Below are positions 27,824 to 56,461 of a stretch of 64,000 nucleotides of DNA, one piece after another. The translations under genes and the position numbers were made by a program. The DNA lies in the NCBI GenBank assembly GCA_047602905.1, contig JBLKOP010000001.1:26773-90772 (forward strand), given 5' to 3'. The notes below the pieces were generated by a model, which saw only the letters and a program-made list of their open reading frames with translations, was not told where the DNA came from and did no database searches. Origin of the DNA: Candidatus Woesearchaeota archaeon (lineage in GTDB: Archaea; Nanobdellota; Nanobdellia; Woesearchaeales; SKIA01). The number at the start of each line of letters is the position of its first letter. Position 1 is the first letter of the stretch.

Positions 27824-27928
27824 GTACTAAGTTTTTCTAACTGATTCAAAAACAACTCCTAAACCAATAATAAGTACTTAAAAGTGCCTAAAAGAACTTT
27901 TATATAGTCCCTCCCCCTACAAAAAACC

Positions 27929-28192
27929 ATGAGCAAAGCAATAAAACTCACCCTACCAGATAACTTAGCACAACAACTACACGAATACGCAGAAGAGCTA
28001 GGTTACACAAACATACAAGAAATAACTCTAGAAGCACTCAGAGAAAAGACCCAAAAACTACACACAATACGAGAACTATACAGAAAAAAAGCAACCAAAA
28101 ACATATCGCTACTAACACCGCAAGAAAAACAACAACTCACCCTTAGTGCAGAAGAAAACTCAAAGATTCTCAGGGAGTTTAACCTCAACTAA
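27929..28192 (+). CDS. ribbon-helix-helix protein, paralog of 22973-23245
   Basis: MSKAIKLTLPDNLAQQLHEYAEELGYTNIQEITLEALRE; TATA 25 bp upstream. Confidence 0.45.
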   Translation: MSKAIKLTLPDNLAQQLHEYAEELGYTNIQEITLEALREKTQKLHTIRELYRKKATKNISLLTPQEKQQLTLSAEENSKILREFNLN

Positions 28193-28318
28193 ATCACCAG
28201 TAAAAACCAAAAAACTTCTGCCTAGCAACAAAAATCCTTCAAGAACTCCTAAGCAATCAATAAAAACAACAAAAAACACAATTTGCAAAGGAGGAAATTT
28301 AAATAGAGAGAAACACAC

Positions 28319-28540
28319 ATGATACTCATGACAACACTTAGCGCAGTCATACAGCAAGAAGAAGACATGTACGTTGCAAGCTGCCCAGAAATAGGAACAG
28401 CAAGCCAAGGAAAAACACTAGAAGAAGCAATAAGTAATCTCAAAGAAGCAACACAACTATACCTAGAAGAATTCCCAAGAAAAAACAGCTCTCGAACAAT
28501 CCTCACAACGTTTGAGGTAAACGAGATTGCCAAAGCATAA
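28319..28540 (+). CDS. hicB: HicB-family antitoxin
   Basis: EEDMYVASCPEIGTASQGKTLEEAISNLKEATQLYLEE matches the HicB/UPF0150 pattern. Confidence 0.65.
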   Translation: MILMTTLSAVIQQEEDMYVASCPEIGTASQGKTLEEAISNLKEATQLYLEEFPRKNSSRTILTTFEVNEIAKA

Positions 28541-28757
28541 AATCATCTCAGGAGAAACATGCATAAAAATACTTTGTAAACACTTCGACTTCTTCATAGC
28601 AAGACAAAAAAGAAGCCACGTAATACTAAAGAAACACACCAGAAAAGAAACCATAGGAACAGTCGTACCCCTACACAAAGAACTACGCATAGGAACACTC
28701 AAAAGCATCCTAAAACTTGCGCGCGTACAAGAACAAGAATTTAACAAACACCTATAA
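28527..28757 (+). CDS. hicA: HicA-family toxin
   Basis: ISGETCIKILCKHFDFFIARQKRSHVILKK...TVVPLHKELRIGTLKSILKLA matches HicA; overlaps hicB by 14 nt. Confidence 0.65.
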   Translation: MPKHKIISGETCIKILCKHFDFFIARQKRSHVILKKHTRKETIGTVVPLHKELRIGTLKSILKLARVQEQEFNKHL

Positions 28758-29966
28758 CGCCTTAGCAAAGAAGATGTTGTGCTTATCACGAATGATACGA
28801 ACAAAAAACTTCTCCTTATCAGGAACACGACCAATAACCTTAACCACACGATCAGAAGCCTTACACAACGTCTCATTAGGCAAACGACCAGGAAACAACC
28901 GCTCAACCTCAACAACATCACGCTTCTTAAAAGGCTTAGGAAGCTGAGCATCCTCAACAATAGAAAAATCCTCAGGACCAAGCTTTAAACGAGTACCAAA
29001 CTGCTTCTCCAACTCAAGAATCTTCTCAGTAAACCCATCCCAACCAACCTCCTCAACAGGATTACGACCACCCTTATAAAAAAGAAAATTCTGAAAACCA
29101 ACAACAGGCTCCACAGAACGAACAGACAAACCAAACTCAACAAAAGACTCCATCTCATGCTCATTAACGCCCCGCATAATAACAGGACAAACCAAACAAT
29201 CAATCTTATCAGAAGCATACACAACAGCCCTTTTTGTACGCTCAACATCATACGGCATACCAGCAATTTCCTCAGCCAAAGAAGGATCCAAACTATTAAT
29301 AGACCAATTAATCTGATCCAAACCAGCAGCAACATACGCATCAATACGAGAAGGAGACAAAAACGTACCATTAGTAACCATAGTAACCTTAACCACATCA
29401 TCACGCTTTTTCAATTCACTAATCAACTCAGGAAGCTGCCAATACAACGTAGGCTCACCCTGAGTCTCAATAAACACCTCCAAAGGAGCAGACTTAACAG
29501 AAGCAACCTTAGCAAACTCAGAAAGAAAATACTCAGGCTCAACAACAAAATCACGAACCTTAACACCACCAGGACCCTCAGAAACAGAACAATACGTACA
29601 CTGCAAATTACAACCAGACATAGGACGAATCTCAATAAGATTAGTACCGCGATCAATAATACCAAACTCTAAGGAACCCTGCAAAGGAACACCAGACAAC
29701 GAATCAATATACACAGAAGGATTACCAGTAATCGTACACACCAAATCAGAACGCAAAGCAACACCAAGCAACTGCATAAAACGAGTACGCTTCTTCTCAT
29801 GACAAGAAAACACTAAACAACCATCAACAACCACATACGAACCAACAGACAACAAAGACTCATCAGACAAAAAAAAACGAAAAAAACGATGCAAAACACC
29901 AAAAACACCACCACCAGGAGCAGAAACAAAACGAATAGAGGAAAAACAAACCTTCATAACAAACAA
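28752..29966 (-). CDS. radical SAM protein with C-terminal TRAM-like domain
   Basis: CNLQCTYCS (CxxxCxxC) cluster motif; C-terminal beta-barrel-like VVEVERLFPGRLPNETLCKASDRVVKVIGRV; coding strand G+T-rich, NNT/NNG codons. Confidence 0.55.
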   Translation of the reverse strand: MFVMKVCFSSIRFVSAPGGGVFGVLHRFFRFFLSDESLLSVGSYVVVDGCLVFSCHEKKRTRFMQLLGVALRSDLVCTITGNPSVYIDSLSGVPLQGSLEFGIIDRGTNLIEIRPMSGCNLQCTYCSVSEGPGGVKVRDFVVEPEYFLSEFAKVASVKSAPLEVFIETQGEPTLYWQLPELISELKKRDDVVKVTMVTNGTFLSPSRIDAYVAAGLDQINWSINSLDPSLAEEIAGMPYDVERTKRAVVYASDKIDCLVCPVIMRGVNEHEMESFVEFGLSVRSVEPVVGFQNFLFYKGGRNPVEEVGWDGFTEKILELEKQFGTRLKLGPEDFSIVEDAQLPKPFKKRDVVEVERLFPGRLPNETLCKASDRVVKVIGRVPDKEKFFVRIIRDKHNIFFAKAL

Positions 29967-30043
29967 GAAAAAAACAACGATTTAAGAAACTACCCCCAAA
30001 CAACAAAACAACCTTTAAATACAACAACACAGAAACAAACACC

Positions 30044-30685
30044 ATGGGGGAAGAAATAAGCTACGAAGAACTCTTCGACACAGTACGACGAGAACGAGCA
30101 AGAGAACAACTACAAGAAATACAAGAAAACTTCTACGAACAAGCAAAAAAACACCAAGAACAACTAGAACAAGAAATACGACAAAAAGACCCACTAGACC
30201 CACAAACAGACAACACAAGAACACAACTCACCAACAGCAAAAAACTCCTACGAGAACTCTACGACAGAAGAGAAAAAAAAATACTCCTCCTAGCACTCAA
30301 CAAAGCAAGAACCAACAGCAACCTCATAGACACAAGCACAATAACAACAAACGAACAACCACTATACAAACAACTCCTAGAAACACTCAAAGAACACAGA
30401 GAAAACAACAACATACAAACACCAAAACCACCAACAACAATACCAGACCCAAGAGAGAAAACAACTAAGAGCAGCGCCCAGAGCACTGAGAGCAGAACTC
30501 AAAATACAGAGAACAAAACACAAAGCACAGAAAACAACACAACAATAACAATAACCAAACAAACACCAAAATTCATAGGAACAAACGGACAAACACACGG
30601 ACCATACAACCAAGGAAGCACAGTAGAACTCCCAAACAACATAGCACAAATACTCATACGAAAAGGAAGAGCAGAACAAACATAA
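30044..30685 (+). CDS. GINS-subunit-like replication protein (Gins51-like) with T/N/Q-rich insertion
   Basis: N-terminal YEELFDTVRRERAREQLQEIQENFYEQ and C-terminal GSTVELPNNIAQILIRKGRAE resemble archaeal GINS; weak. Confidence 0.3.
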   Translation: MGEEISYEELFDTVRRERAREQLQEIQENFYEQAKKHQEQLEQEIRQKDPLDPQTDNTRTQLTNSKKLLRELYDRREKKILLLALNKARTNSNLIDTSTITTNEQPLYKQLLETLKEHRENNNIQTPKPPTTIPDPREKTTKSSAQSTESRTQNTENKTQSTENNTTITITKQTPKFIGTNGQTHGPYNQGSTVELPNNIAQILIRKGRAEQT

Positions 30686-30692
30686 AAACAAA

Positions 30693-30705
30693 AGTTTATA
30701 AACAA
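30693..30705 (+). promoter_or_regulatory. TATA box (AAAGTTTATAAAC), candidate rRNA operon promoter
   Basis: Archaeal TATA consensus about 290 nt upstream of 16S 5' end. Confidence 0.35.
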
Positions 30706-30984
30706 ACCACGTATTCTTGCAACGCTACAAAAAAAACGTAGCACAATCACCACCGCAAACCCACACAAGGGAACGCACACACTCCGAAAAGGAGAAATCA
30801 CACTTGCAACACAAACAAACAGATTTGTGAGCAACAAAAAGGGTCACATAAACAAACAATATGTGGCAGAGTAGACACGCAACAATTGACGCAATTCCGC
30901 AAAAAAAAACATTTTTTTGTGTACAAGAACTTGCGACCAAAAAAGTACAAACATAACAATAATAGCAAAATTATGCTAGAACAG

Positions 30985-32458
<1,474 letters not shown>

Positions 32459-32564
32459 TCTTTTTTTTTCAACAAAGAAAATCAAGAAAACGATGAACAA
32501 GTTCATCAAACAAAAACACGTTGCGTGTCACTCAAACCCTTTCCCATTCACCAACCACACGATC

Positions 32565-32637
32565 GGGCTCTTAGCTCAGTTGGTAGAGCGCCCGCTTTGC
32601 AAGCGGGAGGCCACGGGTTCGACTCCCGTAGAGTCCA
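32565..32637 (+). tRNA. tRNA-Ala (anticodon TGC) in the 16S-23S spacer
   Basis: GGGCTCT acceptor with G3:U70, anticodon loop CTTTGCAAG. Confidence 0.85.
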
Positions 32638-32877
32638 TTTACGCCACGCGCGTCAAAAAAGACCGTGTGGTATAATGAAAAACCGATCACGACGTAACAA
32701 TCGTGATCTCAGACAGAGATGCAAGTTCACTGCAGATTGTACCTACAATCAACGTACCAAGCAGTGTTCTTCACAACGAATTGCATTCATGACGTCACGC
32801 ATACACAAACCACAATATCCTGGAAATAACACCAAATTTTAGTAACGCAAGTTACTAAAAGACGCTAAACACTACAC

Positions 32878-35765
32878 TAGGTGTTTAGCGGATTGGAGGA
32901 ATGTTTCTTGGTGGATAGCTTGGCTTATCAAATGCGATGAAGGACGTGGCAAGCTGCGAAAAGGTTGGGCGAGGCGCAAGCAGCCTACGAACCCAACATA
33001 TCCGAATGCGACATCGCCAAAGAATACCGACAGGTAAGCAAACGCGGGGAATTGAAACGTCTTAGTACCCGCAGGAAAAGAAATCAACAGAGATACCCTT
33101 ATTAGCAGCGAGCGAAAAGGGCAAAGGGCAAACTGAATCCTCTGCAGAAATGCAGTTGGAAATGTAGTGTATAGGGACCTCACAACGGTACCTCTCTTTG
33201 AGATATGAAGTCCGCTGGAAAGCGGCAGCACAGAGGGTGAAACTCCCGTAATAGAATCAAAGAAGGACCAGAGGAATCCCGGAGTAAGGCGTCTTGGTTT
33301 TGGCGTCTGAAGATAGGAGTCATCAACTTCTAACCCTAAATAATCGATAAGTCCGATAGAGAACAAGTACCGTGAGGGAAAGCTGAAAAGAACCCGTGAC
33401 AGGGAATGAAAAGACCTTGAAACCAAGAAATTATAGTGAAGTACGCAACTAACGAGGTTGTGTACTGTTCGTTTTGAATAACGAGCCCGGGAGTGCGTCT
33501 CTGTGGCGAGGAAAACTCGACACGAGTGATCCGAAGCGAAAGCGACAGCTTGCAGCTTGCAAGAAGCGAGGTATGAAAGTGCCTGGAGTCACAGGGATTC
33601 GACCCGAAACCGGTCGAACTAGGCGTGGGTAGGGTGAAGCGTCGGTAAAACGACGTGGAGGCCCGAAGAGGTGCTGTGAACAAGCGTTCTCCTAACCTGC
33701 GTCTAGGGGTGAAAAGCCAATCGAGACCGGTGATAGCTGGTTCCTACCAAAGTTGACCGTAGTCAAGCCTTGAGCGAGACCGTATTCGCGGTAGAGATAC
33801 GGATTGGGGATGCAGGGGAAGAAATTCCTCGGTTCCTTGTCCAACTCCGAATGCGAATACATCGTAGACCTCAGGAGACGGTGGCACGGGGTAAGCCTGT
33901 GTCACGAGAGGGAAACAACCCAGATGAATGTTAAGGTCCCAAAGTACTGTTTAAGTGTTAACGGGTGAAGATTGTTGGTGTCCATAGACAGCGAGGAGGT
34001 TGGCTTAGAAGCAGCCACCCTATAATAAGTGCGTAACAGCTTACTTGTCAAGGGCGCCAGTATCGAAAATGGACGGGGCTAAATCAGTCACCGATACATT
34101 CAGCAGAAATGCGGTAGGTAGGCGTAGTGGTCGGGTAGAAGCGTGTTCGTGAGATCACGTGGACTAGCCACTAACGAAAATCCGGGTAATAGTAGGATCT
34201 GAGCATAGTGAGAATCTATGTCACCGAAAGGGCAAGGGTTCCTTGACACTGTACATCAGTTAAGGGTTAGTCGATCCTAATTCCCATCCTAACTGGATGA
34301 GAGAAAGAAAGGGAAACAGGTTAATATTCCTGTACCAAAGTACTAGACGGCGACGTGAAGTCGTATAGCCGACGCTTTGGGCTAAGAAAACACAGTCAAA
34401 TGTGTTAAGCAAGACATGTCTTTGGAGTGCTGTCATGGCGAGAAAAAGACAAAATTGTGATGAGTGCTTCGTATGAAGCATTTTTCTGATGCCTAGAGCC
34501 CATGAAAAGGAAATACGAAGCGACGTACTTTGATCGTACCCAGAACCGGCACAGGTGCCCCTAGGTTAGAAGCCTCAGGTGTGAAAGGATACTGTAGTTA
34601 AGGGAATTCGGCAAATTAGCCACGTGCCTTCGGCATAAGTGGTCCCTGCGCTTGTAGCAATGCGAGTGCAGGGTGCAATAACAAAGGAGTTCCGACTGTT
34701 TAACAAAAACTTAACTGGCTGCTAACCCGCAAGGGCTTGTATAGCCGGTGACGTCTGCCCAGTGCCAATACCTAAAAGTCCCGTTCAAGGGGCCTAAGGG
34801 CTGGTAAACGGCGGGGGTAACTATAACTCTCTTAAGGTAGCGAAATGCCTTGCCGTTTAATTGACGGCCTGCATGAATGGCGTAACGAGATCTCCACTGT
34901 CCCTAACTACACCCTTCCGAAAATTCCTCCTGGTGCAAAGGCCAGGGACTTCCAGTGGGAAGTGAAGACCCCGTGAAACTTTACTGTAACCTGTTGCTGT
35001 GATGTGGCTTTTGACGTGAAGGCTAGGTAGTAGCAATCGAAGGGCGCGCGCTAGCGCGTCTGGATGCGAAAGATGGGACACTACCCTTCAACAACTGCAT
35101 TACTTACCTCCAAAGAGAGGGACACCAGCAGGCGGACAGTTTGGCTGGGATGGCACACCGTCGAAAATGTATCGATGGTGCCCAAAGGTTGGCTCAGACG
35201 GGTCAGAAATCCGTCGTAGAGTGCAAGAGCAAAAGCCAGCCTAACTGGGATCTCAACATGACAGATCTCAGTACAGAAATGTAGGTCTAGCGAACCCCTG
35301 TAGCTCCTTGATGGGGCTCAGGTATGACCGAAAAGTTACTCCGGGGATAACAGAGTTGTCCCGCCCGAGAGCTCGTATCGACGGCGGGGCTTGCTACATC
35401 GATGTCGGCTCTTCCTATCCTGGCCGTGCAGAAGCGGCCAAGGGTGAGGGTGTTCACCTATTAAAAGGGATCGTGAGCTGGGTTCAGAACGCTGTGAGGC
35501 AGTTTGTTTATTATCTACTGGAAGTGTGGACTATCTGAGAGGAAGGATCGTTTAGTACGAGAGGAACGATGGTTCGTCGCCACTGGTCTATCGGTTGTCT
35601 TACAAGGCAGGCCGAGCAGCTACGCGATATCTGATAAGCGCTGAAAGCATCTAAGTGCGAAGCAGTCCTCGAAAAGAGATAGCACAACTCCGCGCAGAAC
35701 ACGCGGTTGATGGGACTGGGATGTACGCACCAAGCTTTTGCGAGGTGTTTAGTCCGCGGTTTCCA
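32878..35765 (+). rRNA. 23S rRNA (about 2.9 kb; ends approximate)
   Basis: GATGAAGGACGTGGCAAGCTGCGAAAAG near 5' end; sarcin-ricin loop region GTACGAGAGGAAC present; GC-rich relative to flanks. Confidence 0.85.
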
Positions 35766-35913
35766 ACAGGTTGGTTACCAATCTTTTGGTTTTAGTTCCT
35801 TTTGGATATTGTGGTTTGTGTATGCGTGACTTCATTTTTTTTCTTATTTTTTTGTTGTTTCTTCGGTTTTTTCTTCGTTACTTTTGTAAAGGCGTGTTTC
35901 TTTTTTTCTTGTT

Positions 35914-36309
35914 ATGTCTCGTAATCATCTTAATTTGTTGGTGTATCAGAAGGCTTACTCGTTTGTTCTTGAGTGCTATGCTGTTTGTGATTCTTTGCTT
36001 GATGCTGCTTTTTCTTCTCAGTTGCGTCGCGCGTTGTTGTCTGTTCCGTTAAATATTGCTGAGGGTTGTGGTTCTCGTTCGCAAAAAGTTTTTCGTAATC
36101 ATCTCTCCTACGCGTATGCTTCTTCTCAGGAGGTTGATGTGTTGTTGTCTTTATCTTGTGATCTTGCTTTTCTTGATGATTCGGTGGTTGTTTCTTTGCG
36201 GGAGGATTTGGATGTTGTTAAGAAGATGTTGTTTGGTTTGTTGGTTCGTGTTGAGAAGGAGATTTCTGGTGGTCGGCGTTATTCTTCGTATCGTTCTTCT
36301 AGTTCTTGA
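35914..36309 (+). CDS. four-helix-bundle protein of the 23S-rRNA-IVS-protein / Avd family
   Basis: LLVYQKAYSFVLECY...SSQLRRALLSVPLNIAEGCGSRSQKVFRNHLSYAYASSQEVDVLLSLSCDLAFL follows the family pattern W-QKA...Q-RRA..SIP-NIAEG...F.....A-GS..E; coding strand G+T-rich. Confidence 0.65.
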   Translation: MSRNHLNLLVYQKAYSFVLECYAVCDSLLDAAFSSQLRRALLSVPLNIAEGCGSRSQKVFRNHLSYAYASSQEVDVLLSLSCDLAFLDDSVVVSLREDLDVVKKMLFGLLVRVEKEISGGRRYSSYRSSSS

Positions 36310-36857
36310 ATTTCTTTTTCGTATATTCTTAGTTGTTTGCTTAGTGGTTTGTACATTGTTGTTAGGTGTTGTGTTCGTTGTTGTTTTCTTTTTTTTGTGT
36401 ATACGTTCATGTCTTGGCTGTTGTCTATTACGTCTGCTAGTTTGATGATTCCTACTTGCGGGTTTGTTTTTGTTTCTTCTTGTAGTTGTTTGTGGTATTG
36501 TTTGTCTTCTTCTTGTTTGTTCTCTGGGTTTTTTGTTTTGGTGAGTGCTTGTACTATTCTTGTTACGTCTCTTCCGAAGTGTTTTTCTAGTTGTTTGCTT
36601 GTTGTTTTTGTGTCTTCTAGTGTGTCGTGTAGGAGTGCTGCTATTATTGTTGTTGGTGTTATTCTTTTGTCGGTTGTTTCTAGGAGTTTTTTGGCTACGT
36701 TTAGTGGGTGTGTTATGTATTCTTCTCCTGTTTTTCTTGTTTGTCCTTCGTGGCTTTTTTGTGCGTAGATGGCTGCGTAGAGTATGTGTTTTGCTTGTGC
36801 TTCTCCGTATCTCTTGTTTGCTTTTTCGTGGATGGTTTGTAGTTCTTCTTCTTGCAT
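36279..36857 (-). CDS. HD-domain phosphohydrolase (RelA/SpoT-type HD, ppGpp-hydrolase-like)
   Basis: YITHPLNVAKKLLE...AALLHDTLEDT; 31-bp convergent overlap with 35914-36309. Confidence 0.65.
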   Translation of the reverse strand: MQEEELQTIHEKANKRYGEAQAKHILYAAIYAQKSHEGQTRKTGEEYITHPLNVAKKLLETTDKRITPTTIIAALLHDTLEDTKTTSKQLEKHFGRDVTRIVQALTKTKNPENKQEEDKQYHKQLQEETKTNPQVGIIKLADVIDNSQDMNVYTKKRKQQRTQHLTTMYKPLSKQLRIYEKEIQELEERYEE

Positions 36858-36931
36858 GTCTTTCTTGTTGTTTTGGTTGTTTTTAAGTTGGTTGGATACG
36901 TTTTTAAGTTCGTTCTTGTTCTTCTTGTTTT

Positions 36932-37933
36932 ATGTTGTGTTTGGCTATTGAGTCTACTGCTCACACGTTTGCTGCTTCTGTTGTTAAGAAGTCTTCTTCT
37001 GGTTTGGTGAGTGTTTTGTCTTCTGTTCGTGATATGTTTACTACTGAGGGCGGGGGTCTTATTCCTCGTGAGCTTGCTGATCATCATGTTCTTGTTTGGC
37101 GAGAAGTTGTTTCTTCTGCTCTTGCTGAGGCGGGTGTTTCTTTGTCTTCTATTGGTTTGTTGGCGTATTCTCGCGCTCCTGGTTTTGGTCATGCTTTGCG
37201 TGTGGGTAGTGGTGTTGTTCGTTGCTTGGCTTCTCGTTATGGTTTGCCTGTTGTTGGGGTTAATCATTGCGTTGCTCACTTAGAGGTTGGTCGGGTTCTT
37301 GGTGGGGTGGCTGATCCTGTGTTGTTGTATGCTTCTGGTGCTAATACGCAGGTGATTGCTTTGGAGGGTGGTCGGTATCGGGTTTTTGGTGAGACGCTTG
37401 ATTTGGGGGTGGGTAATTTTTTGGATTCTCTTGCTCGTAGTATGGGTTTGGGTTTTCCTGGTGGCCCTGCTCTTGAGAAGCTAGCTGCTTCTTATCGTGG
37501 TTCTCTTGTTGAGTTGCCGTACGTGGTTAAGGGTATGGATGTTTCTTTTTCTGGTATTCAGTCTGCTGTTCGTTTGTTGCTTAAGAGGGGTGTTTCTTCT
37601 GAGGCTATTGCTTTTTCTGTTCAGGAGCACGTGTTTGCTATGCTTGTGGAGGTTTCTGAGCGAGCGTTGGCTCATACGGGTAAGTCTTCTTTGGTTCTTG
37701 GTGGTGGCGTTGCTTGTAATGCTCGTTTGCAGGAGATGTGTTCTTTGATGTGTTCTTCTCGTGGAGTTTCTTTTTTTGCTCCTGAGAAGCGGTTTCTTGT
37801 TGATAACGCTGCTATGATTGGTGTTCTTGGTTTCTCTGTTTTTGACCGGTTTGGTTCTGTTTGTGTTTCTGAGGTAGATTTTGATCCGTATGAGCGTACT
37901 GATGAGGCGGTTGTTGCTTTGTGGGATGTCTAG
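36932..37933 (+). CDS. kae1: Kae1/TsaD tRNA N6-threonylcarbamoyladenosine synthase
   Basis: LAIESTAHTFAASVV, GVNHCVAHLEVG (HxxxH metal site), GGGVACNARL; codons almost exclusively NNT/NNG. Confidence 0.8.
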   Translation: MLCLAIESTAHTFAASVVKKSSSGLVSVLSSVRDMFTTEGGGLIPRELADHHVLVWREVVSSALAEAGVSLSSIGLLAYSRAPGFGHALRVGSGVVRCLASRYGLPVVGVNHCVAHLEVGRVLGGVADPVLLYASGANTQVIALEGGRYRVFGETLDLGVGNFLDSLARSMGLGFPGGPALEKLAASYRGSLVELPYVVKGMDVSFSGIQSAVRLLLKRGVSSEAIAFSVQEHVFAMLVEVSERALAHTGKSSLVLGGGVACNARLQEMCSLMCSSRGVSFFAPEKRFLVDNAAMIGVLGFSVFDRFGSVCVSEVDFDPYERTDEAVVALWDV

Positions 37934-38325
37934 TAGTATCTATTGAAGTTTCTTCCTTGTAGTATGGTTGGTTGGTGGTTTCTGTGTAGGTGTGGTTGGT
38001 TGTGCGCGTAGTGTCTTGTTGTGTGTGTTTTGTACGTGCTGCTGTAGTGGTTGTAGTAGTTTTGGTTGTAGTGTACGTACATGGTTCTTGGTGGATGGAT
38101 TATTTCTTCAAAGACGTAGTGAGTTTGTGCTCTTGGTATGGTTGTTTGTAGGTGGCTTCTTTGGTGTGTGCTAGTACTTATTGGTGTGCTGTAATTTGGT
38201 GCTCTTGCCCAGAGCGGGCATTCGGGTGTTGGGCAGTGGTTGCTTGTTGTTGTGTGCTGTGCGCTTGCTACTGGTAGGAGTAGGAGAAGTGCTGCTAGGA
38301 GTAGGGTTGTTGTTTTTAGTTCCAT
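37930..38325 (-). CDS. small secreted His/Tyr/Asn/Thr-rich protein
   Basis: Signal peptide MELKTTTLLLAALLLLLPVASAQ; HYNQNYYNHY...HYAHNQPHLHRNHQP. Confidence 0.4.
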   Translation of the reverse strand: MELKTTTLLLAALLLLLPVASAQHTTTSNHCPTPECPLWARAPNYSTPISTSTHQRSHLQTTIPRAQTHYVFEEIIHPPRTMYVHYNQNYYNHYSSTYKTHTTRHYAHNQPHLHRNHQPTILQGRNFNRYY

Positions 38326-38549
38326 GTGTGTATTCCTCGTTGGTACTCGGTTATTCCGGGCGCGGTTATTGTTGTTTGTAGTTCGTGAGTTAGTGTTGGG
38401 TTGTGTATTCCGTGTGTGGTTGTTTGTGGGTTGTGTATGTGATACGTTGTTGTGTGTGCTGTTATGCTAATTGCTTGTAGCGTGAGTATTGCTAGTAGGA
38501 GTACTGCTAGTATGCTGAGTAGTTGGTGTGTTTTGTTGTTTAGTACCAT
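38316..38549 (-). CDS. small secreted His/Thr-rich protein
   Basis: Start taken at MVLNNK; signal LLSILAVLLLAILTLQA; HTTTYHIHNPQTTTHGIHNPTLTH. Confidence 0.35.
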   Translation of the reverse strand: MVLNNKTHQLLSILAVLLLAILTLQAISITAHTTTYHIHNPQTTTHGIHNPTLTHELQTTITAPGITEYQRGIHTWN

Positions 38550-38965
38550 GTGTATACGTTTGGGTTGTAGGTTCTTGGTGTGTTGTAGCTGTTTGTTTGT
38601 GGTCTTTGGTTTGGTTGTGTCATTCGTTGTCCGTTGACTCCGCTGTAGAACCTTCCTGGTGTCCATGCGCTTGTGTGTCCGAGGAGTTGGTTGTTGTGTT
38701 GGTATAGGTAGCGGTTGTGCGGGTAGCTTATTGGTTGTTGTACTCTCATGTACCCTTCTGGTCTTCCTGTTGCTCCTACGTATCGTTGGTAGGGGTTGGT
38801 TCTTGGTGGTTGGTTGTTCCAGCTAAGTATTGTTGGTGTGTTGTAGCTGTATGGCTGTATTGTTTGGTATCCGTGGGTTGCTGGGTTGTAGACGCTGATT
38901 GCTTCTGTTAGTGGTATGCTTGCTAGGCTGATGATGATTGCCAGTACAAAAAACACGTATTTCAT
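38540..38965 (-). CDS. small secreted Tyr/Asn/Pro/Gln-rich protein
   Basis: Signal MKYVFFVLAIIISLASIPLTEA; low-complexity mature part. Confidence 0.4.
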   Translation of the reverse strand: MKYVFFVLAIIISLASIPLTEAISVYNPATHGYQTIQPYSYNTPTILSWNNQPPRTNPYQRYVGATGRPEGYMRVQQPISYPHNRYLYQHNNQLLGHTSAWTPGRFYSGVNGQRMTQPNQRPQTNSYNTPRTYNPNVYTWY

Positions 38966-39041
38966 GACTACTAGTAAGTGGTGTTTGTTTTTATATGTTG
39001 TTATTTTTTCTTGCCGAAAAGCAAGCGTTTAAAAAGCTTGA

Positions 39042-40886
39042 TTGGTCGTTTTTTCTCTGAGAGAAATGGTTTTAGAGCAATACTTCTTATCACCAAACTG
39101 GGCGTGGGCACTACTCGCACTTATTCCTCTTATTCTGCTGTACTTACTTAAGCCTAAACCAAAGAAACAAACCATTCCTAGTCTCATGTTTTTCTTACAA
39201 GACGCAAAGAAGAAACGCTTACAAAACTTTCTTCGTCGATTCCTCCCTAACCTCCTATTATTACTACAACTCCTTATCTTACTTGGACTAGCTGCTGCTC
39301 TTATGCAACCCTACATTAGCGTTCCTGTCGTTTCTAGCGCTCAAAACACCGTAATCGTTCTTGACTCAAGCGCTTCTATGCACGCAGTTGATTCATCAGG
39401 TGTTCGCTACGAGCAAGCAATCACTCAATTACTGCCGTTACTTGGCTCCTCTAACACCATTATCTTAGCTGGTGTGAGCGCGGAGATTGTTGTAGAAGAA
39501 GCATCTGCTCGAGAAGCACAGCAATTCCTGCGATCATGGACTCCTAGTCACCAACCAACACGCTTGCGAGTAGCTTTACAAGAAGCTCTTACGCGCGTTG
39601 ATGAAAACACCGTGGTTCTTATCGCAAGTGATTTTATCGATACAGAAGTAGGCAACGGACCTGCTGAGGCGCTTGGTGCTTTACGCGCACGAGCAGCACA
39701 AGTTGTTGAGGTACGCGTGGGCGAGGAGAACACAAACAACATCGGCATAGTGGATGTGGCAGCAACGGATACGACAACAACCATTACTGTGCAGAACTTT
39801 GATGAACAAACACGAGAAACACAAGCGTGTATTGCGGGTACGTGCAGAGAGTTTGTTCTTGAAGCGCAAGAAACGCAGCAATGGACGTTTAACACTCCTG
39901 CAGGAACAAGCGAGGTGCGCTTATCTCATGAGGACGCGTTTAGCGTTGATGACGTAGCGTACATTAGCTCTGAAGAGCAACGAGTACTACGCGTGCTTGT
40001 CGTTACAAACAGCGACTGGCAGTCTCATGAACTCGCGCAATTCCTAGCAGCGCTTAGTGAGAGCACAAACCTTGCTGTAGAGGTAGAAATAAACACTCCT
40101 CCTCGTCTTGTGGACGTAAACCACGACCTCATAATCTTTTATGAAGTAGGTTTATCAACAGTTGTTGAACGAACGTTTCGAGACGTAGAGTCTCGTGTGC
40201 GAGCAGGGGATTCTGCAGCGATTATCTTGTACCAGCAAGGACTCTTTGGGCTGCCGTTTGGTAGCTTACTTGCTCACGAGTACGAAGGAGTAGGAGGTGC
40301 TTCTGCGGTTATTAACACCAACAACCAGCAACGACTCGTAGGCCTTGATTACGGCTACACACCAACACACCCAATTACTCGCTTAACACAACAATCCTTA
40401 GTACTCGCTACTTCTCAAGAAGAAAACCCTCTCATTACAGTTACCAACCTTGGAGCAGGCAGAGTACTGTATTACGGTCTTTCTGGAGAAGCAGGGTTTT
40501 CTGCAACTCCAGACTACGCGCTTTTCTTTAAGGAAGCTATTGATTACTCACTAAACCGCTTAAGTACTTCTTCGCGTACGTTACGAACACAAACAGTACT
40601 TGGAGGAGTAGGGCAAGCAAGAACTCCTAGTGGAGAAGTAGTTTCTGGACGAGTAGCGCTTTTTGAAGCAGGGTTTTATCAAACAAACCAAGGAGTGTTC
40701 GCCGCTAACCTTGCTAACGCTGCAGAAAGCAACATCGCTGTACGAGCATCTACGCAGACAAGTACGTCTGTAGGTGCTGAAATTGTTTCTTCACAGCCAA
40801 GAAACCTCTCGCAATGGCTTATTCTTCTCGTGCTCGTATTACTTCTTCTTGAATTACTCTACGTAAAGTACCGGGGGGATCTCTAA
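39042..40886 (+). CDS. BatA-like membrane-anchored von Willebrand factor A protein
   Basis: N-terminal TM + basic stretch, MIDAS IVLDSSASM, C-terminal TM. Confidence 0.55.
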   Translation: MVVFSLREMVLEQYFLSPNWAWALLALIPLILLYLLKPKPKKQTIPSLMFFLQDAKKKRLQNFLRRFLPNLLLLLQLLILLGLAAALMQPYISVPVVSSAQNTVIVLDSSASMHAVDSSGVRYEQAITQLLPLLGSSNTIILAGVSAEIVVEEASAREAQQFLRSWTPSHQPTRLRVALQEALTRVDENTVVLIASDFIDTEVGNGPAEALGALRARAAQVVEVRVGEENTNNIGIVDVAATDTTTTITVQNFDEQTRETQACIAGTCREFVLEAQETQQWTFNTPAGTSEVRLSHEDAFSVDDVAYISSEEQRVLRVLVVTNSDWQSHELAQFLAALSESTNLAVEVEINTPPRLVDVNHDLIIFYEVGLSTVVERTFRDVESRVRAGDSAAIILYQQGLFGLPFGSLLAHEYEGVGGASAVINTNNQQRLVGLDYGYTPTHPITRLTQQSLVLATSQEENPLITVTNLGAGRVLYYGLSGEAGFSATPDYALFFKEAIDYSLNRLSTSSRTLRTQTVLGGVGQARTPSGEVVSGRVALFEAGFYQTNQGVFAANLANAAESNIAVRASTQTSTSVGAEIVSSQPRNLSQWLILLVLVLLLLELLYVKYRGDL

Positions 40887-43301
40887 ATGGTTTCTTTTCT
40901 TAACGCATGGGTTCTTCTTAGTATACCCGTAGTTCTTCTTTTTATCCTCTGGCTTGTAAGAAAAGACTTTGTTTCTTTTGATACGCGCTTCTCAGAAGAA
41001 GTAGTTGCTCGCAAAAAACATGCTCGTATGCGTCGCTTTGTTCTTATTACAAGAACAATTATTTTCACGTGCTTACTACTTGCTCTCGCAACTCCTGTGC
41101 TCACAACAGATTTTTTTAGCGAGACAGACCCGCGCATCGTAGTCTTAGTGGATGAGAGTGAGAGCATGAACGTGTTTGCCGCTACAAACCTTATTGAAGA
41201 ACTCTCTGAGCTTGCGCGCGTAGAACAACACGTAATAGCAACAGGAAACACAAGCGCACTAGGAGACGCTATTCTTACGCACATAGGAGTAGGAAGTCAC
41301 GTAGTACTCATTAGTGATGGGCGTCTTACAAGCGGAGCTAGTCTTGCTAGTGTTGCTAGCTTTGCAGAAAACCAGCAAGCAACAATTAACGCAGTAGAGC
41401 TTCCTAGGCGTTTTGAGGACGCAAGCGTGCAGGTAGAGGTTGAGAGCCTTGTTATTGAGAATATACAAACACCTATTCATGTACGCGTACACACAACTGA
41501 TGGCGTTGCTAGAGCAGTACAAGTACTTGTTAATAACGAAGTAGTTGATGAGCGAGAAACAAGCACTTCTTTTACGCTCTCACAAGCATTTAGTTCTCGT
41601 GAGAACACCGTAACTGCTCGTATACTTACAGAGGATGAGTTCATGAGTAACAATGAGTTTACCGCAACAGTAACAGCGACTACTAAGCCACGAGTACTTC
41701 TTATCGCTTCTCGAAGTAGTGCTTTTGAAGGAGTACTTAAGCAACTCTACAGCGTGGATACAAAAACAACAATTCCTACTAGCTTAGATAAGTATGCAGC
41801 AATAGTTGTTTTTGACACACCAAGAAGCGCGCTAGACGAGCAAGCACTTGTTGAGTACGTAACCGCAGGAGGAGGACTTATAGTTATAGGAGGGGAGAGG
41901 AGCTTTGAGTTTGGAGGGTACCGTAATAGTTTACTTGAGAGTCTACTTCCTGTACGCGTAGGAGTGGGAGCGAGCGCTGCTCCAAGCGCAAACATCGTCT
42001 TAGCAATAGATATGAGTAACCGAGCGCTTGGAAGCGTTGCTTTTGTTGACGGAGAACAAATACGTGCAAGTCAAGAAGTACAGAGCGTACAAAAAGCGCT
42101 CGCAATAGACTTACTTAATAGGCTGAACAAAAACAACCGAGTAGGAGCACTAGCGTTCACCTATCCGTTACCAGACCAACACTCGTGCACAGGAGCATGC
42201 GTACTTGCACCCATACGAAGCTTAGGAGAGCACCAAGAAGAACTCATAGACCGAGTAGCTCGCGTAAACATTACTGGAGGAACAAGTATAAGCACAGGAG
42301 TGCAAGGAAGCATACAATTACTTGAGCAAGTAAGCGGCTCACAAAACATTGTTCTTATTAGTGACGGAGTAACAGGTGTTGAGGACGCTAACCAAGCGCT
42401 TAACGCAGCAAGAACGTTTGCTGCGAGAGGAGGAACGCTCTACGCAGTACACGTAGGAAACAGCGAGCAAGGACTAGGGTTTTTGCAAGAACTCGCGACA
42501 GCAACAGGAGGAGTGGCTTTTGTAGCAGGAGCAAACAATCGCTTAGCAGTCTTGTTTGGTGAGCCACAAGAAAGCGAAGGAGAAGACGCTTTCGCACTTA
42601 TTCCCGTAGACGAGTACCATTTCATTACGCGAGGAATTACTCCAAGCGCAACCCTATTTGGAAGCAACCAAGTACTTGTTAAGCGAGGAGCGAGGCAACT
42701 TCTTGCAACAAACAACGCACAACCAGTACTTACTGTGTGGAACTACGGAGTAGGGCGTGTAGGAGCAATTACTGCGTTTAGTAACGACGACTTAGGAGCG
42801 CTACTACACGCTCCTAACAGCGAGTACATCAGCCGCCTAGGAAACTGGGCTATAGGACCACTAGAGCGAATACAACAAACACTTATTCTTGTAGAAGACG
42901 TTCGCGAGGGAGAAGAAGCGCTTGTCGTTGCTCGAGGAGAACGACCGCTTCTTGAAGCAGTAGCGTTTAGCAGAGTAGCTCGTAACGAGTACGAAGCAAA
43001 CCTGCCTGCACGCAACCAAGGAGTACACGAAGTACTCGGTACTCGCTACGCAGTAAACTACCCCTCAGAGTTTGACGCACTAGGAATAAGTGATGAGCTA
43101 CGAGAAGCAGTTAATCTGAGCGGAGGAGACATGTACGCTCCTAACGACGCACAACAAATACTTAAGCACGCAACCACGCTTAGCGAACTCAAAGACATAC
43201 GTGAAGAACCACTATACTGGCCGTTTGTACTCGCAGCTCTTATCGTGTTCTTACTGGAAGTGCTCATTCGACGAGTAACGAGTATGCGCAAACACTCATA
43301 A
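40887..43301 (+). CDS. large membrane-anchored double-vWA protein
   Basis: N-terminal TM, MIDAS motifs VLVDESESM and LAIDMSNRA, C-terminal TM LYWPFVLAALIVFLLEVLI. Confidence 0.55.
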   Translation: MVSFLNAWVLLSIPVVLLFILWLVRKDFVSFDTRFSEEVVARKKHARMRRFVLITRTIIFTCLLLALATPVLTTDFFSETDPRIVVLVDESESMNVFAATNLIEELSELARVEQHVIATGNTSALGDAILTHIGVGSHVVLISDGRLTSGASLASVASFAENQQATINAVELPRRFEDASVQVEVESLVIENIQTPIHVRVHTTDGVARAVQVLVNNEVVDERETSTSFTLSQAFSSRENTVTARILTEDEFMSNNEFTATVTATTKPRVLLIASRSSAFEGVLKQLYSVDTKTTIPTSLDKYAAIVVFDTPRSALDEQALVEYVTAGGGLIVIGGERSFEFGGYRNSLLESLLPVRVGVGASAAPSANIVLAIDMSNRALGSVAFVDGEQIRASQEVQSVQKALAIDLLNRLNKNNRVGALAFTYPLPDQHSCTGACVLAPIRSLGEHQEELIDRVARVNITGGTSISTGVQGSIQLLEQVSGSQNIVLISDGVTGVEDANQALNAARTFAARGGTLYAVHVGNSEQGLGFLQELATATGGVAFVAGANNRLAVLFGEPQESEGEDAFALIPVDEYHFITRGITPSATLFGSNQVLVKRGARQLLATNNAQPVLTVWNYGVGRVGAITAFSNDDLGALLHAPNSEYISRLGNWAIGPLERIQQTLILVEDVREGEEALVVARGERPLLEAVAFSRVARNEYEANLPARNQGVHEVLGTRYAVNYPSEFDALGISDELREAVNLSGGDMYAPNDAQQILKHATTLSELKDIREEPLYWPFVLAALIVFLLEVLIRRVTSMRKHS

Positions 43302-43337
43302 ACGTTTATAAATACTTGTTAAGCTATACAGAGTACT

Positions 43338-43799
43338 ATGGCAGTAATGAAAAAACAAGTAAACATGTTCTTGCTCTTTCTTATCATACTTGGTATTGGG
43401 TTACTGGCAGGAGTAACTATCCTGTACCAAGGACAACTCTCTACGTTTAGTAACGACTTAGTGCAACGAAACCAAGAACTTGCTGTGTGCACAGAAGAAC
43501 TTGAAGAAACCCAACAAGCACTGAGTACTGCGCAAAGAGAACTAAGCACAAACATCGGAGATGTAGATAGAACAGTAGCGCTACTTGAAGAAAACGAGGA
43601 AGTTATTGATGAGCAACAAACACGTATTAGCGCCTTAGAAAACGAGGTTAACCGCTTAGAAGTGCGCTTATCAGAAGAGCAAACACGAGTAACGCAATTA
43701 CAAACAACTATTAGTACACGAGACCAAACAATCCTCACGCTGCAAAACCGAATCGAAGACTTAGAAGAGGATTTACAAGCCTGCCAGGATGCTTCATGA
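43338..43799 (+). CDS. membrane-anchored coiled-coil protein
   Basis: N-terminal TM then heptad-rich Q/E/L sequence; TATA 28 bp upstream. Confidence 0.35.
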   Translation: MAVMKKQVNMFLLFLIILGIGLLAGVTILYQGQLSTFSNDLVQRNQELAVCTEELEETQQALSTAQRELSTNIGDVDRTVALLEENEEVIDEQQTRISALENEVNRLEVRLSEEQTRVTQLQTTISTRDQTILTLQNRIEDLEEDLQACQDAS

Positions 43800-44587
43800 G
43801 ACAAGCAAAGAAACTCTTTAACGAACTACGATACGAAATCATCAAGGCTCTTGTAGCAAAAGAATTCCTTAACGCAGCAATGCTTTTCTTCGCCCTGCTC
43901 ATACCGTTATCACTTATGAGCATGAGCTTCTTGTACGCACTCATACCAACTGCTCTTTTCTTCGTAATAAAACTCTACCGAGCATTCAAGGATAACACCA
44001 TACAAAAACTTGAGCAAGGAAACCCAGAAGTACATGAACTCCTACACACAGCGTATGAGCACCAAGAAGTAGATAGCTTAATGGTGCAAGGACTCATGTA
44101 TGACTTACAAAAAAAGCTCGCAACAGTAAGCACAGGAGTACTCATAGACCCAAGACGAGCAATAGGAAAAGTGTTTGTTATAGCAATACTCGCACTCATA
44201 CCGCTAGCGATATACACAGTAACTCCTTCGCTTATACAAGCAAACCCGCTTGCAGACATAGACTTTAGTGCTTTAGCAATGAGAGGAGAGAGGTTTTTTT
44301 TAGAACAAACAACACCAGTAAATCTTAGTGAGGAAGGAATAAGCTATGGAGATATTAATCTTGCTTTGCTTGGCGAAGACGAGCTGGAACTAGCGCTAAG
44401 AAGTAGTGCGGGAGCAATGGACTCTTCTAATGAGCAAGAACTACGCGAAAGAGAATTCGCTCAAGGAAGGGTAAGTGGAGAAATAGAAGTAGTGGAGTCA
44501 GAGTATGATAGCAGCGCACGAGTGTATGATGAGAGCGAAGTAGCGCTTATTACTCGCTATAGTTGCAAGCAACGAGGAGACTGCTAA
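43796..44587 (+). CDS. membrane protein, unknown function
   Basis: Several TM helices; overlaps previous gene by 4 nt. Confidence 0.35.
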   Translation: MRQAKKLFNELRYEIIKALVAKEFLNAAMLFFALLIPLSLMSMSFLYALIPTALFFVIKLYRAFKDNTIQKLEQGNPEVHELLHTAYEHQEVDSLMVQGLMYDLQKKLATVSTGVLIDPRRAIGKVFVIAILALIPLAIYTVTPSLIQANPLADIDFSALAMRGERFFLEQTTPVNLSEEGISYGDINLALLGEDELELALRSSAGAMDSSNEQELREREFAQGRVSGEIEVVESEYDSSARVYDESEVALITRYSCKQRGDC

Positions 44588-44626
44588 AAAACTATCTTTA
44601 TAAACCAAGCTAGTTGTAAACTACTC

Positions 44627-45580
44627 ATGGTAGAGCAAGTAAAGAACCTGGAGAAACTCAAAGAAACCTTTGGCAACGTAGCACAAGAAGTAAGCAAAAC
44701 CATTGTAGGACAACAAGAAGTTATCGAGCACATCCTCGTAGCGATACTCACCGGAAGCAACGCACTTCTAGAAAGCCCTCCAGGACTAGGAAAAACTACG
44801 CTGATAAAAAGTTTAGCGCAAGTACTTGACTTAGACTTTAGCAGGATACAAAACACTCCTGATCTCATGCCAAGTGACATTACAGGAACGTACGTGATAG
44901 AGGAGCACGAAGGAAAAAAGACGTTTATTTTTCAGAAAGGACCGTTATTTGCAAACATCGTTCTTGCAGACGAAATTAACCGTGCAACACCAAAAACACA
45001 AGCAGCACTTCTAGAAGCGATGCAAGAAAAACAAGTAACAGTAGGAACAGAAACGTTTTATTTAGAAGAACCGTTCTTCGTACTCGCAACACAAAACCCT
45101 ATTGATAACGAGGGCGTCTATCCCTTGCCTGAAGCACAAGTAGATCGTTTCTTACTCAAAATCGTTGTGCCGTACCCGACAGCAGAAGAAGAACTAGAAA
45201 TAGTTAATCGGTTCACGACAGCAGCAGAGATAACGCCAGTAAACAAACTCTTAGGGGAGAACAGCATTAAGCTCTTACAAAAACTTACTCGACAAGTACC
45301 TATAGCAGATGATATCAAGCAACGAGCAGTAAAACTTGTACAACAAACAAGAAATACGCCGGAGCGTATTGAGTACGGAGCAAGCCCGAGAGCAAGCATA
45401 GGACTCATACTCGCAGCTAAAGCACACGCGCTTATTCAGGGAAGAAAATTTGTTAGTAGCAAGGACGTAGACGCAATGGCGCTACCAGTTCTGCGGCACA
45501 GAATTATCGCTAGCTTTAGTGCGGAGAGAGAAGGAAAAACTACTGATGACCTCATCAAAGAACTCCTTGACAAGCTATAA
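44627..45580 (+). CDS. MoxR-family AAA+ ATPase
   Basis: Walker A ESPPGLGKT, Walker B VLADEINRA; TATA 22 bp upstream. Confidence 0.8.
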   Translation: MVEQVKNLEKLKETFGNVAQEVSKTIVGQQEVIEHILVAILTGSNALLESPPGLGKTTLIKSLAQVLDLDFSRIQNTPDLMPSDITGTYVIEEHEGKKTFIFQKGPLFANIVLADEINRATPKTQAALLEAMQEKQVTVGTETFYLEEPFFVLATQNPIDNEGVYPLPEAQVDRFLLKIVVPYPTAEEELEIVNRFTTAAEITPVNKLLGENSIKLLQKLTRQVPIADDIKQRAVKLVQQTRNTPERIEYGASPRASIGLILAAKAHALIQGRKFVSSKDVDAMALPVLRHRIIASFSAEREGKTTDDLIKELLDKL

Positions 45581-46456
45581 ATGACTCGCAAGAACAACGG
45601 AATTGATTACGAAGACTTTCTTAAACAACTCGACCGCTTTCGTATAGTACTAAAAAAGAACGTAAGTAGCAAGTACCAAGGAGCAAGAAAAACTACTATA
45701 GCAGGAAGCGGATTAACGTTTAAAGACTATAAAAGCTACGTTCCAGGAGATGATTTTCGAAACCTCGACTGGAGAGTGTATGCGCGAACCAACAAGCTGT
45801 ACGTGCGGCGATACGAGGAAGAACGAGACTTAACAGTGCACATCATCGTTGATGCGAGCGCAAGCATGGATTTTGGAGTGCCAAGCAAGTACGAGTACGC
45901 AACGCTACTCGGAGTAGGGTTTGCGTACCTAGCGCTTAAGAACAACGAAAAATTTGATTTCAGCACGTTTGCAGAAGAAATGAGTCCTGTACGTGCAAAG
46001 AAAGGAAGAAAACAACTCCTCGCACTTCTCGAGTACCTTACTCAATCACGCTTAGATGGAAAAACGGCTTTTCAAGAAAGCCTAGAGAGTGCGCGCAAAA
46101 GCATAAGTAGCAAGAGCTTAGTTATTATTATCAGCGATTTCTTGTATGAGCCAGCAAGCGTGCAAGAAACCCTTACTCGATTCAGAAAAAGCACTGTTTT
46201 GTGCATACAAGTCCTTGATAAACAAGAAAAACACCTTAGTATACAAGGAGACATGATCCTTGAGGACGCAGAAGAAAAAACGACGCTACGAACCTTTATT
46301 ACGCGAAGAGTAAAAAAAGAGTATCAAGAAAGCCTAGAAACGCACCTAGACAAGCTACGAGTGGCTTGTGAGCAAACACGAGCGGGTTTTGTAAGTGTAG
46401 GAACAGACGAAGAAATCTTTGATGCATTCTTTAGCGCGTATCAAAAACTACGATAA
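45581..46456 (+). CDS. DUF58-family (vWA-like) protein, MoxR partner
   Basis: GLTFKDYKSYVPGDDFRNLDWRVYARTNKLYVRRYEEER and IIVDASASM. Confidence 0.7.
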   Translation: MTRKNNGIDYEDFLKQLDRFRIVLKKNVSSKYQGARKTTIAGSGLTFKDYKSYVPGDDFRNLDWRVYARTNKLYVRRYEEERDLTVHIIVDASASMDFGVPSKYEYATLLGVGFAYLALKNNEKFDFSTFAEEMSPVRAKKGRKQLLALLEYLTQSRLDGKTAFQESLESARKSISSKSLVIIISDFLYEPASVQETLTRFRKSTVLCIQVLDKQEKHLSIQGDMILEDAEEKTTLRTFITRRVKKEYQESLETHLDKLRVACEQTRAGFVSVGTDEEIFDAFFSAYQKLR

Positions 46457-56441: not shown

Positions 56442-56461
56442 AAACTACTAGTGAGTGAATA

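Follow-up and report, generated by a model that had tools for sequence, protein, structure and literature searches.

Which peculiarities of a set of short, overlapping open reading frames (ORFs) belong to the genes, and which to the strand on which they lie? The question is raised by positions 37930-38965 of a 64,000-nt stretch of Candidatus Woesearchaeota archaeon (assembly GCA_047602905.1, contig JBLKOP010000001.1, positions 26,773 to 90,772), hereafter the window, meaning the whole stretch of DNA analyzed. A preliminary description made from the sequence letters had placed here three consecutive genes for small secreted proteins of low complexity, and had proposed co-translation, metal capture or surface adhesion, and a resemblance to diversity-generating retroelements (DGRs). 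We interpret the locus, with reasonable confidence, as a three-gene minus-strand operon of small exported proteins that likely constitutes a small envelope or surface module. Much of what first makes the proteins conspicuous is traced below to an unusually strong nucleotide bias of the strand that encodes them.

An overlapping gene trio on the minus strand

The trio, its junctions and its promoter region comprise the following features:

38540..38965, minus strand: ORF3, 141 aa; predicted signal peptide, then a basic Tyr/Asn/Gln/Pro/Thr-rich, putatively exported protein; in NCBI, hypothetical protein ACMXYD_00395
38316..38549, minus strand: ORF2, 77 aa from the internal ATG at 38549 (MVLNN...); N-terminus with a long hydrophobic stretch that is probably a membrane anchor, then some 45 aa of tail containing a conserved HNPxL...APG
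37930..38325, minus strand: ORF1, 131 aa; predicted signal peptide; in NCBI, hypothetical protein ACMXYD_00385
38540..38549, minus strand: ORF3/ORF2 overlap, 10 nt; the ORF2 ATG falls within the xCA TGG of a conserved Thr/Ser-Trp pair at the ORF3 C-terminus
38316..38325, minus strand: ORF2/ORF1 overlap, 10 nt, ACACATGGAACTAA; a copy of the ORF3/ORF2 junction
37930..37933, no strand: stop codons of ORF1 and the Kae1 gene, 4-nt convergent overlap (CTAG)
38988..38996, minus strand: TATA-like box, ATATAAAAA, with its centre about 27 nt ahead of the ORF3 ATG
38967..38979, minus strand: promoter-proximal motif, ACTTACTAGTAGT, immediately ahead of the ORF3 start codon

In the ORF listing the interval is tiled on the minus strand by ORF3, ORF2 and ORF1 with two 10-nt overlaps, and the overlapping arrangement of the preliminary description is borne out, both overlaps being exactly 10 nt with the ORF2 start at 38549. 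The longest form of the middle ORF runs from 38316 to 38666 (116 aa); the internal ATG at 38549 appears to be the most likely start, because gene callers picked it in independent assemblies and homologues begin there. The NCBI records of ORF3 and ORF1 are both assigned to a ‘Candidatus Woesearchaeota archaeon’, and the two peptides quoted from the genes at the outset, HYAHNQPHLHRNHQP and HTTTYHIHNPQTTTHGIHNP, are present in the trio translations.

The length of these ORFs is in itself no evidence that they are genes. Only about 10% of the minus strand is T here, so stop codons are rare on it, and the antisense of the neighboring Kae1 gene contains by chance an N/T/K/R-rich ORF of 188 aa. Both facts, together with the lack of known-family matches for the trio, favor the idea that the ORFs arose by chance or as antisense artefacts on a strand rich in A and C and poor in stop codons, an explanation that is nevertheless extremely improbable in the face of the conservation. 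The same trio, in the same order and the same place, occurs in at least six related Woesearchaeota lineages (L093, L094/L095, L096, L097, L100 and L101), among them two with much weaker compositional skew (L094 and L096). As judged where enough flanking DNA was recovered, L094/L095, L096, L097 and L100 share one map: a BatA-VWA operon, a divergent ORF3-ORF2-ORF1, a convergent Kae1 gene, an HD-domain gene and a 23S_rRNA_IVP (IVP) gene, with the 23S gene beyond the last in L094 and L100. The short contig L101 retains ORF2, ORF1 and the convergent Kae1 gene. Across these lineages Kae1 is 66-75% identical and the trio proteins only 32-48%, and the relatives' ORFs are thus not assembly copies of one sequence.

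The closest relative, L093, is a contig from another sample with 85% nucleotide identity to the window, in which ORF3 (141 aa), ORF2 (77 aa), the start of ORF1 and the overlaps are unchanged. Differences between the two sequences fall on codon positions 1, 2 and 3 in the numbers 35, 25 and 64 (chi-square of about 20, 2 d.f.). The ratio of nonsynonymous to synonymous differences (pN/pS) in the called frames is 0.53 for ORF3, 0.56 for ORF2 and 0.25 for ORF1. The remaining sense frames give 0.9 to 8 (1.2-1.9 for ORF3); the sole antisense frame with a comparable ratio shares its third position with the called frame and has stop codons inside. The plus strand opposite the trio holds only ORFs of up to 76 aa. 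The third-position excess, the low pN/pS in the called frame only, the conserved starts, stops and overlaps and a hydrophobic leader in all three products show, on comparative evidence, that these are real conserved genes and not antisense artefacts; the condition under which the preliminary description would have been given up, that the ORFs are unconserved or antisense artefacts, therefore does not hold.

The search for homologue families that had been suggested as a check thus returned trio homologues in at least six lineages. When 1.84 billion representatives were searched exhaustively with HMMER, four further distant ORF3 relatives came up (E 7e-23 to 3e-4), the family members in the alignment being P0002 and P0004-P0007, and a profile search added further ORF1 relatives (E 3e-55 to 1e-24). 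The distribution is narrow. The trio is absent from the Kae1 surroundings in 80 GTDB Woesearchaeota and Pacearchaeota loci, two family-profile scans of Joint Genome Institute (JGI) metagenome contigs found no relatives, and profile searches of Pfam, NCBIfam, PHROGs and PDB returned nothing significant for any of the three. These appear to be three undescribed families, found only in one small Woesearchaeota clade. No polymorphism was seen in 12 contigs from other sequencing runs, all 100% identical to the window where they overlap 35700-41000.

Co-translation from one transcript, proposed at the outset from the overlaps, gains support from the tight junctions in relatives, as read from the sequences. 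The ORF2 ATG is embedded in an xCA-TGG of ORF3 in five lineages (the window, L093, L094, L096 and L101). The ORF3/ORF2 and ORF2/ORF1 overlaps measure 10 and 10 nt in the window and L093, 13 and 4 nt in L094 and L096, and 4 nt in L101; L100 has a 4-nt gap at ORF3/ORF2 plus a 4-nt overlap. The ORF2/ORF1 junction is a 4-nt ATGA overlap in five other lineages, the 10-nt form being confined to the window and L093, and the 4-nt overlap of the ORF1 and Kae1 stop codons is also called in L094, L096 and L101. Since the start codons of ORF2 and ORF1 both fall within the 3' end of the gene before, translation of the two would be coupled to that of the preceding cistron.

Origin of the trio by tandem duplication was considered and rejected: ORF3 aligns to each partner no better than shuffles do (z of -0.4 and -0.9 for the mature parts). 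The local alignment of ORF2 with ORF1 is marginal (z of about 2), and across the trio only the two junction sequences are alike.

The intergenic region between ORF3 and the divergent BatA gene is 100 bp long and contains promoter elements only. Both the TATA-like box and the ACTTACTAGTAGT motif are conserved in seven lineages of the alignment. A layout common to 38967-38996 and 56441-56480 (minus strand) consists of a TATA element (CATATAAAAA or CATTTAAATA), about 11 nt, ACT(T/C)ACTAGTAGT, 1-3 nt and the ATG; the gene that starts at 56441 encodes 143 aa, its product beginning MNNLVLQHFYIVRHGDHDH. Because the same architecture precedes this unrelated gene, ACTTACTAGTAGT was rejected as the site of a trio-specific regulator, and the promoter is better seen as a type of the lineage than as a switch specific to the trio.

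One oddity concerns L093, in which the final ~30 nt of the contig (1210-1242) duplicate part of its ORF3; low-complexity sequence has probably produced an assembly artefact there.

Predicted export and conserved cores

The N-terminal segments of the three products are as follows:

38900..38965, minus strand: predicted ORF3 signal peptide, MKYVFFVLAIIISLASIPLTEA; in homologues the leader ends in an A-x-A-type motif (ASA or ATA)
38460..38522, minus strand: ORF2 hydrophobic segment, residues ~10-30; longer and more hydrophobic than the ORF1 and ORF3 signal peptides
38260..38325, minus strand: predicted ORF1 signal peptide, MELKTTTLLLAALLLLLPVASA

Each product begins with a hydrophobic stretch whose best 15-residue Kyte-Doolittle mean is 2.6-3.1, against at most 0.2 elsewhere in the protein. 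Read directly in all orthologues (6-7 for each family), the leaders of ORF1 and ORF3 are of the n/h/c type with A-x-A-type ends, and have the features of Sec signal peptides: the n-region is short and polar or basic, 10-15 residues make up the hydrophobic core, and positions -3 and -1 are taken by small residues. Beyond the leader both proteins are hydrophilic and basic (net charge +5 to +12), without a second hydrophobic stretch. The ORF2 segment has a 15-residue mean of 3.05 here and of 3.0-3.7 across its family; the N-terminus before it is neutral or acidic, and the tail is short and neutral. ORF2 thus resembles a membrane anchor that is probably uncleaved, with a short outward tail. A class III (type IV pilin-like) leader, with K/R-G/A right before the hydrophobic segment, was found in none of the three families by direct reading. 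The signal peptides of the preliminary description are in this sense upheld, with a signal-peptide-like N-terminus in all three products and the reservation that ORF2 looks more like an uncleaved anchor, and the trio products are probably exported.

Downstream of the leaders the families have conserved cores. In ORF1, Cys31, Cys36, Pro37, Trp39 and Ala40 are invariant within CxxxxCP(L/S)WA, Leu38 being Ser in one member; His77 and Pro79 of an H-x-P motif are likewise invariant (HPP in 5/6 members), and VHYNxNY and the C-terminal F(N/T)RYY (FNVYY in one member) are further conserved. The ORF3 family retains GRPEGYGLVQ, GHTSAWxPGxFYSG and a terminal aromatic motif, and the ORF2 family the core HNPxL...APG. 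No fold could be assigned from AlphaFold2, the predicted local distance difference test (pLDDT) being 43 for ORF3 and 46 for ORF1 with alignments of only 6 sequences.

Taken as an operon, the trio would work as follows. Transcription would start at the conserved TATA promoter at 38988-38996, back to back with the BatA promoter, and yield an mRNA that is leaderless or has a very short leader, from which ORF3 and then, by coupling, ORF2 and ORF1 would be translated. ORF3 and ORF1 would leave the cell by Sec-type signal peptides as basic, Tyr/Asn/Gln/Thr/Pro/Arg-rich exported proteins with no predicted fold, and ORF2 would stay in the membrane with its short tail outward. The most likely role, by inference, is that of a cell-envelope or surface module in which two soluble basic proteins would lie near or on a membrane-anchored partner, and which, in an episymbiotic cell, could serve structure or adhesion. 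Coupled operons of small Sec-exported hypothetical proteins, a pattern widespread in prokaryotes, resemble the trio in their n/h/c leaders with A-x-A ends and in having one promoter, several short cistrons and overlapping stop and start codons; unlike them, the trio families have no database relatives and occur in one Woesearchaeota clade only.

Several points weigh against this interpretation. The export call comes from reading sequences, and the function from composition, charge and neighbors only. The AlphaFold models are unreliable, so that ‘unstructured’ may here mean ‘unpredictable’. A pN/pS near 0.5 denotes only moderate constraint. Finally, all lineages that have the trio are fairly close (Kae1 66-75% identical), so that its conserved position next to the BatA operon argues only weakly for a functional link.

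Residue composition and the neighboring genes

The neighbors on which the remaining arguments draw are these:

35705..38940, no strand: reversed-composition block, 3.2 kb; plus strand approximately A 0.10, C 0.13, G 0.30 and T 0.45
35914..36309, plus strand: 23S_rRNA_IVP four-helix-bundle gene (PF05635, E 6e-24), the ‘Avd-like’ gene of the preliminary description
36279..36857, minus strand (as the trio): HD-domain gene; third positions A 0.70, C 0.26
36932..37933, plus strand: Kae1/TsaD gene (PF00814, E 5e-70), convergent with ORF1; nearly all codons NNT or NNG
39066..46456, plus strand: divergent operon of BatA-like, VWA, 153-aa coiled-coil protein, DUF7502, MoxR and DUF58 genes; near-neutral composition

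The low-complexity richness in His, Tyr, Asn, Thr, Pro and Gln that had drawn attention to the genes is present, but much of the His and Thr excess comes from strand bias and is unconserved. Six amino acids, K, N, T, Q, H and P, have codons made up of A and C only; compared with the originally noted list, Lys is added and Tyr is missing. They account for 0.43-0.49 of the trio residues against 0.32-0.39 in less-skewed orthologues. His accounts for 10-11% of ORF1 and ORF2 here and 3-7% in orthologues, two to three times the level of the low-skew ones, and Thr is higher too; Tyr and Asn are high in all orthologues. We conclude that the Tyr/Asn/Gln richness is a property of the families and that the extra His, Thr and Pro stem from the local nucleotide regime, in which coding-strand silent sites are about 90% A+C and which would push residues toward K, N, T, Q, H and P. 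ORF3 here has lost the cysteine pair (YCxNN ... NxCP) that is kept in 4/5 homologue lineages (P0004-P0006 and L100 compared); Q and Y stand in its place, as expected under pressure against G/T-containing codons. Kae1, on the other strand, shows the mirror effect: its third positions are T 0.66 and G 0.28, and residues with all-G/T codons (G, V, W, C, L and F) amount to 44% of the protein.

This bears directly on the proposal that the products are His-rich metal-binding peptides, akin to metallophores or metal-storage proteins. Hpn and histatins are His-rich metal-binding proteins, and like them the trio proteins are short, with the His of ORF1 and ORF2 in clustered HxH or HxxH runs. Unlike theirs, the clusters are unconserved and follow the nucleotide bias: the His-rich runs quoted at the outset align to R/Y/Q/N/S in orthologues, which makes a conserved metal site on them unlikely, His drops to the orthologue level where skew is weak, and CAC is merely one of the all-A/C codons. 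One invariant His each remains in ORF1 and ORF3. Metal capture is weakened accordingly, and we regard it as decidedly improbable.

A DGR template or target served by the nearby Avd-like gene has next to no chance of being the explanation. It was suggested by the A-rich codons AAC, TAC and CAC and by the PF05635 gene, of the fold family that includes bAvd, 1.6 kb away, and in both features the locus does resemble a DGR. Yet the codon bias belongs to the whole strand and not to the trio, filling the entire block and, with opposite sign, most of the 81 kb surveyed; and the PF05635 member is a 23S_rRNA_IVP gene with no reverse transcriptase partner, which keeps its place next to the 23S gene in every relative for which that side was recovered. 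Other components of a DGR are missing as well. No reverse transcriptase was found in the 64-kb window by Pfam on all ORFs of at least 290 aa, a scan for Y/F-x-DD in all reading frames of at least 150 aa matched only a tRNA synthetase, and there is no template/variable repeat pair, with no repeat of at least 45 nt beyond compositional matches. The comparison for adenine-specific mismatches that had been proposed as a check was run at the DNA level, and the best repeat to involve the trio lies within ORF3, as two 39-nt copies encoding an SYNTP motif (38572..38610 and 38830-38868, minus strand; 82% identical), whose mismatches are of mixed types.

A partnership with the divergent envelope system of BatA, VWA, coiled-coil and DUF7502 proteins (with MoxR/DUF58), to which the trio would contribute substrates or accessory subunits, is compatible with the exported-module interpretation, but we rate it as doubtful. 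The promoters are back to back, the products on both sides are all membrane or exported proteins, and the adjacency of trio and BatA is kept in 5/5 lineages with that side recovered, even in L100 with MoxR and DUF58 replaced. The clade is narrow, though, and the synteny may be inherited and not selected; in 80 other Woesearchaeota loci the fetched Kae1 flanks contain no BatA homologue, and no trio either. Bat/MoxR-VWA-DUF58 clusters are known as Bacteroides aerotolerance-type operons and from Borrelia (BB0170-0176; PMC5700661). The neighboring operon resembles them in its BatA-N, VWA, MoxR AAA and DUF58 members; the trio itself has no known place in these clusters and is linked by position only. 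At four-fold sites the BatA-VWA-MoxR-DUF58 operon has A 0.38 and T 0.35 here, against A 0.68-0.77 in L094 and L096.

As to the setting, an archaeal rRNA operon occupies 30986-35786. Kae1 has a best identity of at most 58% among 185,579 species representatives, and the labels of its top matches read, with few exceptions, Woesearchaeota, Nanoarchaeota or Pacearchaeota, some records being mislabelled.

A block of reversed strand asymmetry

The trio lies in a block whose strand asymmetry is the full reversal of its surroundings. Over about 81 kb, made up of the window (1-64000) and two overlapping contigs that extend it, L103 by 7 kb to the left and L102 by 10 kb to the right, nearly every gene, in either orientation, leaves the rRNA-sense strand A/C-rich at silent sites. 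The third-position keto skew typically lies between -0.4 and -0.8, where a value of -1 would stand for A/C alone. The most extreme skew of this normal sign (-0.9) is found at 27847-30991, left of the 16S gene. At the 3' end of the 23S gene and in the ORF3/BatA intergenic region, 3.2 kb apart, the sign flips, and between them the silent-site skew is +0.76 to +0.93. The edges are sharp, with real limits at about the 23S 3' end (~35790) and the ORF3 start (38965). Third positions inside follow the strand, being 91-94% T/G in the plus-strand Kae1 and IVP genes and 88-96% A/C in the minus-strand HD gene and trio, and the intergenic DNA carries the bias too. To the right, the BatA operon is near neutral and the skew regrows over the next 25-35 kb. 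Among 82 Kae1 orthologues the silent-site skew ranges from -0.47 to +0.76, and that of this genome, +0.87, lies above the range.

The asymmetry looks like a replication-type one, in that it follows the DNA strand and not gene orientation, and orientation-independent skew also occurs in other DPANN loci over 7-17 kb. Transcription was considered as the cause, the boundaries lying at promoters and the minus sense of the block having just one run of at least 4 T (at 36083), but seven consecutive minus-strand genes (~3956-8556) obey the plus-strand bias, and transcription units are thereby excluded as a general explanation. Also rejected were read-through from the rRNA operon, T6-T8 runs following directly after the 23S gene, and an inverted duplication of the two blocks that flank this operon, which gave compositional matches only. 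Oligo-T runs are archaeal termination signals, and the Kae1 coding sequence has six of them in sense, 5-7 nt long, T7 at 37771 being one.

Two explanations of the block have to be weighed. The block could be what remains of an old inversion, a relic now decaying in a genome whose replication skew is strong; this would account for the sign, since an inversion flips skew at once and the rest of the ~81 kb is opposite in sign irrespective of gene orientation. Yet the gene boundary of the reversal is shared with relatives in which four-fold sites are near saturation (identity only 0.03-0.13 above the composition expectation). A relic should also be weaker than its surroundings, yet the block skew equals or exceeds the bulk skew in each lineage except the GC-rich L100, in which Kae1, HD and IVP are near neutral. 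For these reasons the reversal looks maintained and not like a fading inversion, and the relic is unlikely. One idea is that the block boundaries are a replication origin and a terminus; lying adjacent, 3.2 kb apart, they would fit the skew signs, the chromosome being copied almost wholly one way with the rRNA operon as a polar barrier. We put this forward tentatively, as a possibility with the odds against it; if true, the odd composition of the trio would be the footprint of an unusual archaeal replication mode.

Vertebrate mitochondrial DNA has a heavy/light (H/L) strand asymmetry, with ND6 on the minority strand and inverted codon usage in that gene. In the candidate phyla radiation (CPR) bacterium Ch65 and relatives, a genome-wide G/C strand disparity has been read as near-unidirectional replication (PMC7143001). 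As in both systems, one strand is C-enriched here (A and C in this case) despite gene orientation and is the rRNA-gene strand, and the minority-strand genes show inverted codon usage in the manner of ND6. Unlike in either, A/T and G/C are both skewed here, with silent-site skew of up to 0.9, and a 3.2-kb island beside the rRNA operon has the full reversed sign and is kept in relatives.

Further observations concern the block and other parts of the window. Many assemblies of the window organism break inside it. A 32-nt inverted repeat, 97% complementary (32789-32820 and 35804-35835), flanks the 23S gene and is probably an rRNA processing stem. Two AbiEii-type toxin genes (14588-15550 and 20899-21936, minus strand) lie in segments of skew opposite to the bulk (+0.35), which may be recently acquired or inverted mobile modules, and a short G/T-rich island (24337-24662, +0.57) lies upstream of an S-layer gene and holds a 44-aa Lys-rich minus-strand ORF (24489-24623). 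At 28319-28757, two plus-strand ORFs (73 and 76 aa) look by eye like a HicB/HicA-like pair. Both lie within an A/C-rich block, immediately upstream of a radical-SAM gene that the opposite strand encodes with T/G at 96% of its third positions. Rfam tRNA matches of about 120 nt at 18172-18293 (minus) and 57588-57705 (plus), uncalled by ARAGORN, are probably intron-containing tRNA genes.

Extreme strand bias alone can yield proteins that read as ‘low-complexity His/Asn/Thr-rich’ and codons that read as DGR-like, and it reshapes even a universal enzyme such as Kae1, which calls for caution. The reversed-skew island beside the rRNA operon is a concrete place to study the replication of tiny archaeal genomes. 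The trio itself would add three undescribed exported families to the DPANN archaea, whose cell surface, thought to mediate attachment to hosts, is almost wholly uncharacterised.

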